This document shows positions 3,973 through 15,117 of a stretch of 36,000 bases of DNA, one piece after another; the stretch's first letter is position 1; every line of letters starts with the position of its first letter. The DNA is from a virus, in IMG/VR virus record IMGVR_UViG_3300002092_000018, positions 1 through 36,000 of that record; one strand, written 5' to 3'. Position numbers and translations under genes: made by a program. The notes below the pieces were generated by a model. That model did no database searches. It worked only from the letters and a program-made list of their open reading frames with translations, and was not told the origin of the DNA.

Positions 3973-3996
3973 GGCAGGGTTTTCCCTACCTTTTGC
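3971..3996. terminator. Shared hairpin between the convergent endolysin (+) and methyltransferase (-) genes; putative bidirectional terminator
   Basis: AAGGCAGGG-TTTT-CCCTACCTT forms a 9-bp stem with one mismatch, followed by TTTTG on the plus strand. The hairpin overlaps both stop codons (3970-3972 and 3986-3988). Confidence 0.55.
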
Positions 3997-4561
3997 GGAT
4001 AGCGACTTGGCTTGACAGCAGAATCAGGTCGCTTTTTTCGCTGAAGATGGTCGTAAACAGGTCTATGGCGATTTTGGGGCGGTTTAGCAGTCCGGGCATA
4101 TCGTTCCATAGGTAGTCATCAAAAAGCAGCACACCGCCCGGTTTCGTCAGCCCAAACGCCATTACAGCATCCGTCAGAACGTCCGGGGCGGCATGGCTTC
4201 CGTCCACATAAACAAAATCGAATTGACGCGCCGCAGCAATTTGCTCTGCCATGCCCAAGTAAGAGGGTCCGGCAAAGGCGCGAACGGTTTGCGTTTCCTT
4301 GCGGACCCATTCGACATTCTTGCGCCACGTTTCAAAGAGATTGTTCAGGTTCAAACAGGTATGCTCTGCGGACCCCTCAAAGGTGTCCAGACAAACCAAT
4401 TCCCCATCTTGAGTAAGCATATTCTCAAGCATCCAGCACGTTGAACGTCCCTCAAATGCGCCTATCTCAAGGATGCGCCTTACAGGTCCACCCATGACTT
4501 GTTTGATAGCCTCAAAGTGAGGGATATTGTGCGAGAACCAATCTTGCGAGAATTGGAGCAT
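3986..4561 (-). CDS. Class I SAM-dependent methyltransferase (Methyltransf_24 / O-methyltransferase-like, not a DNA MTase)
   Basis: The SAM-binding motif is RILEIGAFEGRSTCWML, and the second motif is FDFVYVDGSHAAPDVLTD...KPGGVLLFDDY. No DPPY or PC-type DNA methyltransferase motifs are present. RBS is AAGGACAGG. Confidence 0.8.
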   Translation of the reverse strand: MLQFSQDWFSHNIPHFEAIKQVMGGPVRRILEIGAFEGRSTCWMLENMLTQDGELVCLDTFEGSAEHTCLNLNNLFETWRKNVEWVRKETQTVRAFAGPSYLGMAEQIAAARQFDFVYVDGSHAAPDVLTDAVMAFGLTKPGGVLLFDDYLWNDMPGLLNRPKIAIDLFTTIFSEKSDLILLSSQVAIRKR

Positions 4562-4579: not shown

Positions 4580-5371
4580 CTACGGTGCGGGTACAAGCCG
4601 CCCATCGAACTGATATGAACCAATATGGCTCAAGACAGCCCACGGTGCGCCATAAATCTTGCCGCCGATCTTGCGGTATTGAGCGCAAAAGTGATAATCC
4701 TCAGACAGCAAGCGATTCGTACCCTCTTCAATGCTGGTAGAAAAGTATTCGTGAATCTCTTCCCGCGCCTGAAGTGTGTTGCCCAAGTCGGCAACATCGT
4801 TGTTATAAAAAGGAGTGTGCGGCTTGAGTTCTTCAAACACGTTTCGCTTGATGAGCAGAAAGCCTGTGCCAGCGTTTTGAATCTCGACAGGCTCATTGAC
4901 AGGCACGGTAACGCTTGGCGCATAGTCAACAAGGTTAACGACAAACGAACCCGTGTGATGCTTGAGTTGATCGTCAGGAACACCGCTGGCGATTGCTTGA
5001 CGGACCGATTGCCAATTGATTTCCTTCTTGGGATAGATGCCGCCAATAACATCCTTGTTGGCAGCAAGCATCCCAACAATGTCCATTGCATTGAAACTTA
5101 TGTCCGCATCAATGAACATCAGGTGAGTCGCATCCGACTTGAGAAACGCTTGCGCCAGCGCATTACGAGCGCGGGTAATCAGCGATTCGTTGTACATGAA
5201 TGACATGACGGATTCGATGCCGTGCTGCGCCAGCACTTGCGTTGCGTTGATGATCCCTTGGCAGTACGCGCCAGTACAAACGCCGCCATACATGGGCGTT
5301 GCAATCAGGACCTTGGGGCGCGACAAGACTGCGGGTTGTTCTTGCGCCGGGGTAAGGGATTCGTCCATCAT
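4580..5371 (-). CDS. Glycosyltransferase, GT-A fold-like (DxD = DAD)
   Basis: Features are KVLIATPMYGG, NESLITRARN and THLMFIDADISF (the DxD motif), then IGGIYPKK. The architecture resembles family-2-like nucleotide-sugar transferases. The start overlaps the upstream stop (ATGA). Confidence 0.7.
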   Translation of the reverse strand: MMDESLTPAQEQPAVLSRPKVLIATPMYGGVCTGAYCQGIINATQVLAQHGIESVMSFMYNESLITRARNALAQAFLKSDATHLMFIDADISFNAMDIVGMLAANKDVIGGIYPKKEINWQSVRQAIASGVPDDQLKHHTGSFVVNLVDYAPSVTVPVNEPVEIQNAGTGFLLIKRNVFEELKPHTPFYNNDVADLGNTLQAREEIHEYFSTSIEEGTNRLLSEDYHFCAQYRKIGGKIYGAPWAVLSHIGSYQFDGRLVPAP

Positions 5372-5883: not shown

Positions 5884-6201
5884 CTACGATATATCCTCGA
5901 CACGCAAAACGTAAAACCCTTTACTGTTCTTGCGCCAGCCGTGGACTTCAATTCTTACCCCTGCATCACGCACGATAGCGAGAGTATCAGAAGCCATGAT
6001 CTTCTTGATGCGCTCCGACACTCCGCTTGCCGTGACTTGTACCGCTAGAACTTCGCCCTTTCTTAGGCAAAGCAAATCGCACCATCCCCATAGGTCTTGA
6101 CGGATTCTGGCAAACGGATTCCAACGCTCAACAACGTCTACCCTGTAGCCCATTTCTTTTAGGTGGGCAATGCTGCGCTGAGTCGGAGTTAGTTTAGCCA
6201 T
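5884..6201 (-). CDS. Small PD-(D/E)xK-like nuclease (Holliday-junction-resolvase-like), 105 aa
   Basis: The pattern GYRVDVVERW...RQDLWGWCDLLCL...VLAVQVT...IEVHGW resembles a small phage nuclease/resolvase family. It follows the exonuclease, RecT and SSB-like genes. Confidence 0.5.
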   Translation of the reverse strand: MAKLTPTQRSIAHLKEMGYRVDVVERWNPFARIRQDLWGWCDLLCLRKGEVLAVQVTASGVSERIKKIMASDTLAIVRDAGVRIEVHGWRKNSKGFYVLRVEDIS

Positions 6202-6230: not shown

Positions 6231-6524
6231 TTAGAACGGAATGTCATCATCACCAACGCTGGACCGATCTTCCCTTGGCGCATTACGATCCGCGCCAAAC
6301 TTGGATGCGTGGCTTGCCGGATCATAGTTGCTTTCCATGATGTAGACAAAATCGCGTCCGCCTTTAGTCTTGCGAATGTATGCCATCAGCTTGATCTTGT
6401 CCCCGGCGCGATAGTCCCTTGTGAGGACCATATCACCAACCAAGTCGGGGTGCGTTTCTTTTTTCTTGAACTTGTTTTCAAACAAGTAGCAAGTCCCATC
6501 TTTAACGGTAAATGTGTCAGCCAT
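6231..6524 (-). CDS. Compact SSB-like protein or SSB C-terminal-tip mimic, 97 aa, ending in DDDIPF
   Basis: The last six residues, DDDIPF, equal the conserved bacterial SSB C-terminal tip. A roughly 70-aa basic, beta-rich core is followed by a disordered acidic linker. It lies directly downstream of the RecT-like gene. Confidence 0.6.
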   Translation of the reverse strand: MADTFTVKDGTCYLFENKFKKKETHPDLVGDMVLTRDYRAGDKIKLMAYIRKTKGGRDFVYIMESNYDPASHASKFGADRNAPREDRSSVGDDDIPF

Positions 6525-8132: not shown

Positions 8133-9035
8133 TCACTTGATTAGGAAGCGTCTACTTCCGGGGGTTGAAATGATGAACTGCTTGTAAATGTCCGGCATGG
8201 ATTGCTTGAACAATTCCGCGCTGAACTTCTCACTTGCCTTGGAAGATTTCCAAGTGATAAGTGTAGAACCGTCAACGGACCGCAATTCGGAATTGCCGCC
8301 CATCATGTTTCGCAACTGAACCTCCAATTGCTCCGCCTCTTCTTCAGCCGCCTTGATGCGCGACTTCATTTGCTTGAGCATTGCAACGGCTTGCTCAACG
8401 CTTTGATTTGCCGTGATGACTCCCTCAGTCGATTGGGGGTAAAGCAACTTGGCTTGTTCGACTGTTTCTGCCGGGGGAGTTGTTCCAGCTTGAACGTGAC
8501 CCCAATAAGTTGCCATTGTCGAAATGAGTTCGTTGCGCTGCTCATCCGAAATGTCAAAAACGTGGTAGCAGAATTCCTGTCCGCCAAACAAGACCGCAAA
8601 GCAGACTTTCGGAATGTTGTGGACCGCCGATTCATGGACAAGCTGCGCCATGTCGGTTTCAGGAATGCGCCCGGTTTCAAAATCGTATTTGGACCTGATT
8701 GCCGCCGTGTAGTTTTTGGCTTCAACCAGCATATTTCCGCCGACTTCGATCCCATCAAAATGCGACTTGAGCCACGTTTCACGGGGATGGGTTAGCGCGT
8801 AGTCAGCGTCCTTGATTTCGATGCCCAAACGGTCCTGAACAAGCCCCAAAATGACAGGCTGCATGACATGACCCATGCGGACATTTTCACGGTCAGAAAT
8901 GTCCTCGGGAATCAGCTTGCCTTGCTTGATAAGGATTTGATCGACTGCCTTTCCTGCAACGGCTTGTCGACTGTCCCCGGACCACCATGCAGCATTGCGG
9001 ACCGCAGGGGCAAAATCAGCTTGATCGTTTGCCAT
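8133..9035 (-). CDS. YqaJ / lambda-Exo-type 5'-3' exonuclease (PD-(D/E)xK)
   Basis: Motifs are MGHVMQPVILGL and HFDGIEVGGNMLVEAKN (D...ExK catalytic motif). The size is 300 aa and it is paired with the RecT-like gene. Confidence 0.8.
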   Translation of the reverse strand: MANDQADFAPAVRNAAWWSGDSRQAVAGKAVDQILIKQGKLIPEDISDRENVRMGHVMQPVILGLVQDRLGIEIKDADYALTHPRETWLKSHFDGIEVGGNMLVEAKNYTAAIRSKYDFETGRIPETDMAQLVHESAVHNIPKVCFAVLFGGQEFCYHVFDISDEQRNELISTMATYWGHVQAGTTPPAETVEQAKLLYPQSTEGVITANQSVEQAVAMLKQMKSRIKAAEEEAEQLEVQLRNMMGGNSELRSVDGSTLITWKSSKASEKFSAELFKQSMPDIYKQFIISTPGSRRFLIK

Positions 9036-12958: not shown

Positions 12959-13045
12959 CTAGTTGGTTAAAACGATTGCAAACCATGCTGCGACAATAGC
13001 AACAATGGCAATGCACACTAAACCGGAAAGAATCTCGCCTTTCAT
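12959..13045 (-). CDS. Unlisted 28-codon single-TM micro-ORF (MKGEILSGLVCIAIVAIVAAWFAIVLTN)
   Basis: Its ATG overlaps the ardC-like stop (ATGA), with AAGGA 8 nt upstream. It exactly fills the spacer before the next gene. It falls below the length cutoff of the ORF track. Confidence 0.45.
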   Translation of the reverse strand: MKGEILSGLVCIAIVAIVAAWFAIVLTN

Positions 13046-13932
13046 GCTGCAATCCTTTCTCTTGCCGCATCCTGAACCTTGCAAGCATTGATGTAATCTG
13101 CGGCTTTCTGAGCAAGTGCTGCGGCTTTGAATATTGCCTTGCTATCTTCCCGCATTGCCTTTAGCCAGTTGGCGACATAACCGGCATGGCGCAATTCCCC
13201 TGCAATGCCGTAATCCTGACAAATGAATGCTGCGGTAAGTTCTGCTACTAACTCCTCAAAAGCATATTCGGGATTGCCGAATCTGCCTTTGCTTATGTCG
13301 CGGTCACAACGCGCCTTATCGCTGGTCCAATGTCCCAACTCGTGAAAGGCAGTTGCGTAGTAATGACAGGGGGCAGCAAAATCCTTTGGGAAAGGCAGTT
13401 GTATGATGTCACGGCTTGGCATGAAATAAGCGGAATCGCCACCGTGAAATATTTTCGCTCCTGTCGCAATGATGCGATTCTCTGCCGCCTGATTAGCGTC
13501 AAAGGGTTCCGGCATGAGTTCCGGCTCCGGCTGTTTGATCGTAATTCCGTCCACTTGCGCGACATTGAAAACATAGTAGGACTTCAGAACCGCATAGCCT
13601 TTTGCTTCGTTACCCTCTGCATCCGGCTGTCCCTTTGCGACCGGCTTAAAGAATACGATCTTGCTACCCTTTTCGCCTTTCTTGACAGTTGCGCCCAATC
13701 CCTGCCAATGCTTAAAGGTTCCCCATACAGGCGTTTCATACCCTCGCATCATGCCAACCATACCGAGCAATAAACGATTGATTCCCTGATAAGGCTTTTG
13801 GGTAACGATATTGCGATCAAGATTAGAGCCAATGGCATTACTGGCTTTCCAAGGTTTAATCCAAGGCATAGCCCCTGATTCAACTTGTTTGATGATGTCC
13901 GCAGTAATTTCAGCGTAGAGCGAATTCGACAT
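13042..13932 (-). CDS. ardC: ArdC-like antirestriction protein (N-terminal ssDNA-binding domain plus C-terminal HExxH metallopeptidase domain)
   Basis: The N-terminus reads MPWIKPWK...KPYQGINRLLL...WGTFKHWQGLGATVKKGEKGSKIVFF. The C-terminus reads FHELGHWTSD...YAFEELVAELTAAFIC. It is the first gene of the leftward arm. RBS is AGAGGGTTATCAACC. Confidence 0.85.
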   Translation of the reverse strand: MSNSLYAEITADIIKQVESGAMPWIKPWKASNAIGSNLDRNIVTQKPYQGINRLLLGMVGMMRGYETPVWGTFKHWQGLGATVKKGEKGSKIVFFKPVAKGQPDAEGNEAKGYAVLKSYYVFNVAQVDGITIKQPEPELMPEPFDANQAAENRIIATGAKIFHGGDSAYFMPSRDIIQLPFPKDFAAPCHYYATAFHELGHWTSDKARCDRDISKGRFGNPEYAFEELVAELTAAFICQDYGIAGELRHAGYVANWLKAMREDSKAIFKAAALAQKAADYINACKVQDAARERIAA

Positions 13933-13970
13933 GGTTGATAACCCTCTATAGTTAGATTAGGAATGCAATC

Positions 13971-13998
13971 ATATAATCACTTGACTGCATAGCTATAA
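13971..13998 (-). promoter_or_regulatory. Candidate leftward early promoter (extended -10)
   Basis: The minus strand reads TTATAG-16 nt-TTATAT, with TG one base upstream of the -10 (TGATTATAT). It lies about 40 nt upstream of the ardC-like ATG. Confidence 0.4.
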
Positions 13999-14110
13999 TG
14001 TTATCACTAATCACGCACCTAATGTTTGTCATTCGTTAACCCTGCCTTAACCACAGATTAAGACAAGGAATATTTAGTGTTCCCTCTATATCTATATAGC
14101 TATATATGTA

Positions 14111-14149
14111 ATAGATTTATTTCCTATCTATCTATAACTATATTGCTTA
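14111..14149 (+). promoter_or_regulatory. Candidate rightward promoter copy 1
   Basis: The sequence is ATAGAT-TTATTT-16 nt-TATATT-GCTTA. It shares both the upstream TAGAT box and the TATATTGCTTA block with copy 2. Confidence 0.45.
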
Positions 14150-14203
14150 GTATCCGAATAGGGGCAGAATCGTAATGCAATTGCTACTAGCTCTCGTTCT
14201 CAT

Positions 14204-14242
14204 TTAGATTTATCTATTGGGGACCGGGCTATATATTGCTTA
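14204..14242 (+). promoter_or_regulatory. Candidate rightward promoter copy 2
   Basis: The sequence is TTAGAT-TTATCT-16 nt-TATATT-GCTTA. Its geometry is identical to copy 1, which lies 93 bp upstream. Confidence 0.45.
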
Positions 14243-14289
14243 CCCTATGCAATGCTTAACCATGCCTGATACCCTTTTGGAAATGGTCC

Positions 14290-14339
14290 CTATTATCTAT
14301 TATCAATGCTGTATCGTTATTCAATAGAGTATCGCTATT
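14290..14339 (+). repeat. Short direct repeats in the long leader: CTATTAT x2 and GTATCGYTATT x2
   Basis: CTATTATCTATTAT lies at 14290-14303. GTATCGTTATT lies at 14311-14321 and GTATCGCTATT at 14329-14339. Confidence 0.7.
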
Positions 14340-14457
14340 AGGTGGCAACTGGATTGGACTTGAGATATGAAAAGAGGTAGCCCTTCTCCAACCTCCCCCC
14401 AAAAGAAAACGGTGTTTGTGTTATTGTGTTGACGTTAGTTATCAATGGGGATTAGCC

Positions 14458-14667
14458 ATGAGCATTGAGATTGAGAAGATGGTAGCGATACCTGAGAGTA
14501 AGCCCAAGTATCCTTATGAGGACATGAAGATTGGGGATAGCTTCTTTGTTAAGGGCGGGAACATCCAGACGATAGCCAATAGCAACTGGAGGAAAGGTAA
14601 GGCGTTGGGTATGAAGTTTATTTCCCGTCGTGTTGATGATGGTGTGCGAGTGTGGAGAACGGCATGA
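14458..14667 (+). CDS. Hypothetical protein, 69 aa, first gene of the rightward arm
   Basis: I prefer the ATG at 14458, which has GGGGA 6 nt upstream. The motif KIGDSFFV...GVRVWR recalls a recurrent small phage protein of unknown function. Confidence 0.55.
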   Translation: MSIEIEKMVAIPESKPKYPYEDMKIGDSFFVKGGNIQTIANSNWRKGKALGMKFISRRVDDGVRVWRTA

Positions 14668-14894
14668 CAGAGGCTATCAAGGTGAATGGGGAAGAGGCAT
14701 TGGTTGAAACCCCGGATGAGTTTCAGAGGCGGCGTTATCTTGATCTTGTGTGGAACATGGACAAGAAGCAGATGTTTGCGGAACTGATGCGGGTTCATGC
14801 GACATCGACTCAAATGCTCAATGCCGCGCAGTTGGAAATACAGAATCTTAAAGCGGTGATTGCAGAGTATGACGAACGTAAACGCTTGCATTGA
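14664..14894 (+). CDS. Hypothetical protein, 76 aa
   Basis: The ATG overlaps the upstream stop (ATGA), and GGAG lies 6 nt upstream. Confidence 0.55.
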   Translation: MTEAIKVNGEEALVETPDEFQRRRYLDLVWNMDKKQMFAELMRVHATSTQMLNAAQLEIQNLKAVIAEYDERKRLH

Positions 14895-15117
14895 CGGATC
14901 GCAGAGCCAAAATCGCTCTAGCGTTGCAGGACTGCGGGAAAGCCGTGTGCGCTATCGTGACGAGATGCGCAGGGCTATCTCTTGCGCGACTGCCGAGCAG
15001 AAGCGGCGGCTTGTTGCGGATTGGAAGCGGAAGTATTCTGATTTGATGGTGCGGGAGTTGGTGAGTCTTGCCAAGGTGAGTGAGATTCGTGATCGTGTCA
15101 GCCAATGGGAGCAATGA
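14860..15117 (+). CDS. Hypothetical basic protein, up to 85 aa (start uncertain)
   Basis: It fills the same-strand gap. The ATG at 14860 overlaps the previous gene by 35 nt, and an internal GTG at 14946 is an alternative start. Confidence 0.45.
   Translation: MQSMTNVNACIDGSQSQNRSSVAGLRESRVRYRDEMRRAISCATAEQKRRLVADWKRKYSDLMVRELVSLAKVSEIRDRVSQWEQ

Follow-up and report, generated by a model that had tools for sequence, protein, structure and literature searches.

The stretch of DNA analyzed here, referred to below as the window, comprises 36,000 nucleotides (nt) of the IMG/VR virus record IMGVR_UViG_3300002092_000018 (positions 1 to 36,000), and our subject is a minus-strand open reading frame (ORF) that encodes a protein of 97 amino acids (aa) and lies directly behind a gene for a RecT-like single-strand annealing protein (Table 1). 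The protein, whose full sequence is MADTFTVKDGTCYLFENKFKKKETHPDLVGDMVLTRDYRAGDKIKLMAYIRKTKGGRDFVYIMESNYDPASHASKFGADRNAPREDRSSVGDDDIPF, ends with ...REDRSSVGDDDIPF, followed by the stop codon TAA (6231-6233). The last six codons were read by hand and indeed encode DDDIPF, the C-terminal hexapeptide of the single-stranded DNA (ssDNA)-binding protein (SSB) of E. coli. This exact tip had been pointed out in an initial annotation of the window, and both the codon reading and its conservation in relatives bear it out. An end of the type acidic-x-[IVLM]P[FWY] was found in no other of the window's 513 six-frame ORFs with a length of 40 aa or more.

Two close metagenomic homologues, with 85% and 68% identity, were found. 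Both have the exact DDDIPF tip, and their linkers vary in length and sequence; the linker motif NAPRE is retained in P0002 and P0003. When the codons were compared with those of the homologue at locus L001, the core differed by 17 codons with synonymous changes only and by 10 amino-acid changes; for the linker, the respective counts were 5 and 13, with indels in addition, and the tip was kept. This codon pattern indicates that the core is under purifying selection. A chance ORF or an artefact was rejected because of the conservation, the synteny and the codon substitution pattern, and the ORF was confirmed as a genuine coding gene built as a domain, a flexible linker and a tip.

The ATG of the gene is located 2 nt past the annealase stop codon, and the gene is translationally coupled to the RecT-like annealase. 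The order of the genes in the minus-strand cassette is YqaJ/RecE-like exonuclease, two small ORFs, RecT-like annealase, the 97-aa gene and a 105-aa ORF; genes for an exonuclease and an annealing protein are thus present in one operon, as in RecET/Red-type modules. The same cassette order was found at L001/L002, L006/L007, L008 and L053, where the last slot is taken by the 105-aa ORF, RusA or PDDEXK_15. Across loci, the annealases are 43 to 83% identical (counterparts compared at L001, L002, L006 and L008) and the exonucleases 41 to 84% (conserved at L001, L006 and L008). The initial annotation had placed the gene between a RecT-like annealase and a small nuclease. The annealase was corroborated by its PHROG match, but the nuclease identity of the downstream neighbor was derived from position only, and the 105-aa ORF gave no match in Pfam, PHROGs or the PDB. 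At L001, the counterpart of the 105-aa ORF is 98% identical, that of the annealase 83% and that of the tip protein ~70%.

Table 1. Coordinates of the 97-aa gene, its parts and other features of the window
Feature	Position	Strand	Basis
97-aa gene with core, linker and tip; DUF736-like, small SSB-type	6231..6524	-	ORF (ATG start), homologues, codon pattern
Folded core, residues 1-68	6321..6524	-	AlphaFold2, column frequencies, core-only hhalign
Clade-specific loop insertion TRDYRA, residues 35-40, between strands 2 and 3	6405..6422	-	Alignment of 131 members
Variable low-confidence linker, residues 69-91	6252..6320	-	pLDDT ~54-61; differs among close homologues
NAPRE, degenerate second linker motif	6270..6284	-	Clade motif Y-P-[RKV]-E-[VIL]
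DDDIPF tip, residues 92-97, as in E. coli SSB	6234..6251	-	Hand-read codons
RecT-like single-strand annealing protein, 312 aa	6527..7465	-	phrog_561, E 3e-20; Pfam RecT 21.8 bits, under the 24-bit cut-off
YqaJ/RecE-like recombination exonuclease, 300 aa, first cassette gene	8133..9035	-	phrog_434, E 8e-44; Pfam YqaJ 25.2 bits, cut-off 22
105-aa ORF, no detectable family	5884..6201	-	Slot holding RusA or PDDEXK_15 in related cassettes
ArdC-like anti-restriction/ssDNA-binding metalloprotease homologue	13042..13932	-	phrog_7245, E 1.6e-82
Glycosyltransferase-like gene, early operon end	4580..5371	-	phrog_1574, E 6e-45
Methyltransferase-like gene, early operon end	3986..4561	-	phrog_2675, E 3e-7
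Region between early and packaging/structural genes, probably a divergent promoter region	~13950..15100		Low GC (0.44), GC skew sign change

Relatives of the 97-aa protein

Searches with the protein itself against Pfam, PHROGs and NCBIfam gave no significant match; it was below threshold in every library. Phage GenBank gave no match either by megablast of 5 kb or by tblastn of the protein, and no relative was found in a genome-collection scan seeded with the alignment of the close homologues. An exhaustive HMMER search with a three-sequence profile yielded 30 representatives of ~70 to 120 aa, and a follow-up profile search using these 30 gave 163 clusters at E<=0.001. The profile searches place the protein, as a divergent member, in a large family whose proteins have ~75 to 126 aa and are encoded on phages, prophages and plasmids. 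The view of the gene as an isolated oddity has to be given up: the family is large, is already labelled SSB and overlaps DUF736.

The members consist of a basic, aromatic-rich core of ~60 aa, a variable disordered linker and a [DE][DE]x[ILV]PF tip, and the window protein conforms to this architecture. The common core motif is approximately (K)PG.G.lFKN..K....HPDYKG......G....aW.K..K.G..f.S, with F15, N17, K20, P26, D27, G30, G41, W49 (Y in the window protein), K/R51 and G56 being near-invariant. The homology is independent of the tail because a core-only hhalign comparison of the window protein with the 83 members lacking the loop insertion described below matched over 55 columns with a probability of 97% (E 3e-11). 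The tip itself, as [DE][DE]x[ILV]P[FWY], ends 131 of 144 collected relatives, a set biased toward the tip by the word index; it was present in 22 of the 32 proteins of the exhaustive search set. A genome scan with core-only peptide seeds returned 31 ORFs, and every one of them had the acidic-x-PF motif or a variant of it. In nine of these genomic members (L017, L020, L025 [Mesorhizobium wenxiniae], L028, L030 [Cupriavidus], L033, L034 [Variovorax], L040 and L044), D-[DE]-IPF is internal, with a short stretch of further residues, in many cases AP(E)(W/F)R, coming after it, as in DDEIPFAPEWR. An internal position would be unexpected if docking requires the free carboxylate of a terminal Phe.

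A loop insertion of 5 to 6 residues (consensus DYKAGD) is present in 48 of the 131 aligned members and absent from the other 83. A motif Y-P-[RKV]-E-[VIL], located 5 to 12 residues ahead of the tip, was found in 20 of the 48 members with the insertion versus none of the 83 without it. Its carriers are among P0004 to P0043, the insert clade sits in YqaJ/RecT-like cassettes, and the copy in the window is the degenerate NAPRE. The phage annealase or exonuclease might dock here as well, which would make the NAPRE/YP[RK]EV linker motif a second site of interaction.

In two independent cases, P0099 and a protein of the Caballeronia plasmid pSBC1_4 (WP_165989324.1; L056:2770-3267), two tandem cores share one linker and one tip. 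Since the core was duplicated in tandem twice independently, a dimer is suggested as the working unit of the single-core proteins. Furthermore, four metagenomic proteins of ~210 aa (P0069, P0072, P0120 and P0135) have core and tip fused in frame to N-terminal domains of two different types (~130 aa, with a D...E.K-like motif), and the usual start Met is kept at the junction. They could be real fusions, or a stop codon or gene call may have been missed. Neither Pfam nor the PDB gave a match for the N-terminal domains of P0069 and P0135. The idea that these domains and the 105-aa neighbor of the window gene are nucleases was derived from a D..E.K-like motif and from position only.

The family overlaps with DUF736 (PF05284), whose gathering score of 22.1 bits was passed by P0061 (27.0), P0053 (25.0), P0055 (23.1), P0099 (22.5) and P0085 (22.4), the matches spanning approximately positions 25 to 80 of the 99-position model. 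The window protein itself gave no match to DUF736 at E<=1, and its link to DUF736 is transitive, through the passing relatives only. The Caballeronia plasmid protein is annotated as DUF736 and ends with EDEDIPF. Only 5 plasmid records matched, and the family is mainly phage borne. DUF736 is a gene of unknown function carried by all conjugative elements of the Mesorhizobium ICEMlSymR7A type (PMC8627217).

In all metagenomic contexts examined, an annealase is encoded no more than ~2 kb upstream of the family member. The annealase is RecT-like in the window and at L001/L002, L006/L007, L008 and L053, with the RusA slot seen at L052. At L009/L010, L011 and L054, members without the insertion lie directly behind or within ~2 kb of an ERF annealase gene. 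In cultured phages with a replisome of their own, the family gene follows the helicase and DNA polymerase genes, and in 2-aminoadenine siphoviruses it is located between helicase-DNA polymerase and PurZ. In the PurZ/DpoZ phages of Acinetobacter, Klebsiella and Salmonella (L013, L014 and L051), the member always lies between the DNA polymerase gene and PurZ. Bhz20 and PMBT28, whose genomes are complete, have no SSB-type gene besides the family member according to annotation and to phmmer searches with the N-domains of the E. coli and B. subtilis SSBs as queries. No canonical SSB was found in the window, nor was a recognizable polymerase, helicase or primase gene in its early region, which agrees with the initial annotation, where no phage replication genes had been visible.

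The translational coupling with the annealase, which is strict across relatives, and the presence of a second linear motif in just the clade of the YqaJ/RecT-like cassette would fit an adaptor, i.e., a protein whose core or NAPRE/YPREV motif binds the phage annealase or exonuclease and whose tip tethers the complex to host SSB-interacting proteins (replisome, PriA). However, the same core occurs beside unrelated partners (ERF annealases, helicase-PolA and RecT-like annealases), which is difficult to explain by a single conserved surface for protein binding and agrees better with a ligand shared by all, for example ssDNA. Moreover, direct binding of SSB tips by annealases is established, which makes an adaptor core unnecessary. 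We therefore consider an adaptor very doubtful.

The SSB label and the fold of the core

Two PHROGs, both named "single strand DNA binding protein," match most of the relatives (phrog_18154 matches 124 and phrog_7364 matches 99 of 131). For the window protein, phrog_18154 was the best match, but a weak one (E 0.19, 13.5 bits); the intermediates P0004, P0005 and P0009 matched it with E values of 1e-3 to 4e-3. Cultured relatives, such as phiEcoM-GJ1 gp15 (YP_001595410) and the proteins of Salmonella phage PMBT28 (AUZ95521), Acinetobacter phage Bhz20 (XRX12777) and Klebsiella phage K21lambda1 (CAK6597163), are labelled SSB or DNA-binding protein in GenBank and have long, Q/A/P-rich linkers and host-like tails. 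The family is thus already known and labelled SSB in PHROGs and GenBank and is biochemically uncharacterized, the window protein being a new, divergent member.

When the NCBIfam SSB models and E. coli SSB (1EQQ) were compared with the relatives, they aligned to the linker and tip only, never to the core, and with scores far below the cut-offs. For example, residues 72 to 113 of the PMBT28 member align with residues 136 to 178 of E. coli SSB, the two having NEPPMDFDDDIPF in common, and the C-terminal 13 residues of the PMBT28 member are those of E. coli SSB. Since the SSB models align to nothing but linker and tip of the relatives, the SSB label of the family in the databases probably derives from tail similarity and not from a DNA-binding domain.

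The core was modelled with AlphaFold2. The three close homologues alone gave a pLDDT of 41; with 131 sequences as the input, the mean pLDDT was 75 and the pTM was 0.51, with core blocks at ~84 to 89. Strands were predicted at residues 11-16, 28-33, 45-52 and 58-65 and a short helix at 69-75, the remainder being of low confidence. Where an oligonucleotide/oligosaccharide-binding (OB) fold has a five-stranded barrel, this moderate-confidence monomer model has four strands and a short C-terminal helix. The loop after strand 1 is long, the one after strand 2 is variable, and strands 3 and 4 are connected by a tight Gly hairpin; we infer that this order would be compatible with a small SH3/OB-like barrel. 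A Foldseek search of the PDB with the model gave nothing significant (best E 0.27, ribosomal proteins), although small barrels are hard for Foldseek. In BFVD, it returned only uncharacterized phage proteins of the same family, one of them a phage protein named SSB (E 0.065). PDB sequences gave no real match to the full profile or to a core-only profile of 52 sequences; SLA1 and optineurin came up in these sequence searches as chance hits only. PF00436 (at E<=1) and TIGR00621 matched the core of neither the window protein nor any of the ~50 relatives scanned, and there was no match of any kind to the DUF3127-like and T7 gp2.5-like families, which the initial annotation had proposed for comparison. 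Because the SSB models reach only linker and tip and no significant PDB match was obtained, the core is not a recognizable OB SSB. This conclusion had been anticipated from the sequence, and the PF00436 and Foldseek searches upheld it. The accompanying argument from size fared less well: the core is indeed shorter (~60 to 68 aa versus ~112 aa) than the canonical SSB domain, but this shortness says little against an OB fold, given that the OB domains of cold-shock proteins have ~70 aa.

Could the protein nevertheless be an ordinary short SSB, whose core is a small beta-barrel of the OB or SH3-like type that is homologous to canonical SSB but cryptic or much reduced? The overall architecture is that of an SSB, and the strand and loop order as well as the single BFVD match to a protein named SSB would be in line with it. 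On the other hand, neither the SSB models nor the 52-sequence core profile found a match, Foldseek found none in the PDB despite the many SSB structures deposited there, and the predicted fold has four strands only and no helix between strands 3 and 4. We judge homology to canonical SSB to be very improbable. A standard OB SSB was the outcome named in the initial annotation as refuting its reading; the lack of a PDB match and the four predicted strands argue against that outcome, with a slim chance left for a small barrel.

A different explanation follows from the fact that the tail is the only part demonstrably similar to SSB. The protein may not bind ssDNA at all but be a stable carrier that floods the cell with SSB tips and occupies the pockets of ExoI, RecJ, RecQ, PriA, UDG and others. 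Such a decoy would keep host enzymes off the phage recombination intermediates or blunt SSB-dependent host responses. The host 3' exonuclease ExoI is guided by SSB, and exonucleases guided in this way would attack the substrate of the annealase. A decoy would also account for tails that copy the host SSB as closely as that of PMBT28 with its 13 identical residues, for a core with no detectable relation to known DNA-binding folds and for the state of the window protein, which has lost several near-invariant core residues but has a perfect tip. However, a decoy does not need a core that is conserved across hundreds of lineages with invariant aromatic and basic positions of the exposed type. Moreover, members hold the position of an SSB in phage replication modules as the only SSB-type gene, and the tandem-duplicated cores suggest a domain that functions as an oligomer and does more than carry the tip. 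We regard the decoy as unlikely. The question of mini-SSB versus tip mimic, raised in the initial annotation for one protein, extends to the whole family. That the family as a whole is not a DNA-binding SSB and would hijack or titrate host SSB-interacting proteins for the phage annealase is, in our estimate, improbable as well; if true, hundreds of phage genes would be misannotated as SSB.

A possible role beside the annealase and exonuclease

With slightly better than even confidence, we favour the view that the product of the 97-aa gene is a miniature SSB-like protein, which would assist the phage exonuclease/annealase module by coating ssDNA and presenting a host-type tip. The core, which is probably dimeric, would bind the 3' single strands produced by the exonuclease and would contact ssDNA via conserved aromatic and basic residues (F15, K20, W/Y49 and K/R51). 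The flexible tail would present the host-type SSB tip, and by analogy with Red-beta/RecT and with HK620 Sak4, the tip could load the cognate annealase onto the coated ssDNA. Red-beta and RecT proteins recognize the last 7 residues of bacterial SSBs (bioRxiv 10.1101/2020.04.14.041095), and Sak4 of HK620 requires the last 6 residues of the neighboring phage SSB for binding of SSB-coated ssDNA and for annealing (PMC5928155). The tip might also recruit host SSB-interacting proteins, such as chi/polymerase (Pol) III, PriA, DnaG and others, and recombination intermediates of a phage without a replisome could then be replicated.

Support for a miniature SSB-like protein comes from the architecture and its conservation, the family link that does not depend on the tail, the family labels, the positions next to annealases and in replication modules, the status as sole SSB-type gene, the host-tracking tails and the hint at a dimer. 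Indirect functional support is provided by PMBT28: DpoZ-dependent incorporation of dZ in E. coli rose when the phage's block of helicase and "SSB" was added (PMC12944874; bioRxiv 10.1101/2025.10.22.683976).

Several points weigh against this view. The PMBT28 effect belongs to the helicase and the "SSB" jointly and not to the small protein on its own. The SSB label is not independent evidence because it apparently stems from linker and tip similarity. The core fits no OB/SSB sequence model and no solved fold, and the AlphaFold2 model is of moderate confidence only. As judged from its sequence, the aromatic-rich core of the window protein is only mildly basic (pI 8.7) and deviates from the family at near-invariant positions (W49 to Y, Y28 to L, K29 to V and S61 to Y). 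Finally, neither a paper characterizing any family member nor a report of ssDNA binding by one of them was found in the literature. Taken together, the observation made in the initial annotation is confirmed and its interpretation is partly supported.

If the mini-SSB view is correct, the family would have the smallest SSB-type core known (~60 aa), with no similar solved structure, wired to the host via the C-terminal tip. A phage that lacks a replisome could recruit Pol III, PriA or primase in a simple way if the ssDNA coated by its own protein displayed a host-type tip. The compatibility of SSB tails limits the transfer of annealases between hosts, and for recombineering, the family would offer compact, host-matched partners for RecT and ERF annealases. 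Binding of ssDNA by family members would bear on the annotation of phrog_18154 and phrog_7364 and would give a first function to DUF736, which is a core gene of many conjugative elements. The 97-aa gene itself is unexceptional; experiments on the family would be inexpensive and decisive.

Further genes accompany the cassette. An ArdC-like gene (Pfam ArdcN and MPTase-PolyVal) is found with it not only in the window but also at L001 and L006 and on the P0036 contig. At L006, a related phage contig, this gene is followed, upstream of the exonuclease-annealase cassette, by a gene for a 204-aa protein (L006:2246-2860) that matches the sliding-clamp domain DNA_pol3_beta_2 of Pfam. The glycosyltransferase-like and methyltransferase-like genes at the end of the early operon may possibly function in the modification of DNA or of the host surface. 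The early genes, on the minus strand, lie on one side of the low-GC region at ~13950 to 15100, and the genes for packaging and structure, on the plus strand, lie on the other.

Comparison with known systems

Closest to the window protein are the proteins of phrog_18154 and phrog_7364. They have the same core motif, a disordered linker, a [DE]Dx[IL]PF tip and a place in phage DNA-metabolism modules. The window protein differs from them in its sub-threshold score, the loop insertion of 5 to 6 residues and the four replaced residues named above; moreover, its linker is short with a NAPRE/YPREV-type motif, and its gene is part of a YqaJ/RecT-like cassette instead of following helicase-PolA. DUF736 resembles the window protein through the several tip-bearing relatives that pass its gathering score, but the window protein itself has no match, and DUF736 is without a known function or structure.

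PRD1 P12, B35SSB of Bam35 and p5 of phi29 serve protein-primed replication and are not known to have a bacterial SSB-type tip. No sequence or structural match between them and the window protein was found. Like it, they are small and phage encoded, and they demonstrate that ssDNA can be bound without the classical OB fold (PMC11886824 for P12; bioRxiv 10.1101/2021.03.25.437074 for B35SSB/p5). From bacterial SSB, the window protein differs in the size of its domain (~60 to 68 aa versus an OB domain of ~112 aa), the four predicted strands, the lack of any sequence or fold match of the core and the length of its linker, which is 23 aa versus ~56 aa in E. coli SSB (PMC7145534). The order of the parts is nevertheless the same, the domain being followed by a disordered linker that ends with an acidic tip, and DDDIPF is identical.

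Functional parallels that provide a working model for the tip are HK620 Sak4 with its SSB and the Red-beta/RecT proteins. Their SSBs are canonical or distant OB-fold proteins, the one of HK620 being a 21-kDa monomer that forms a tetramer (PMC5928155). What these systems have in common with the window is that a gene for an SSB-type protein adjoins that for the annealase, and that the annealase needs the last 6 to 7 residues of the SSB.

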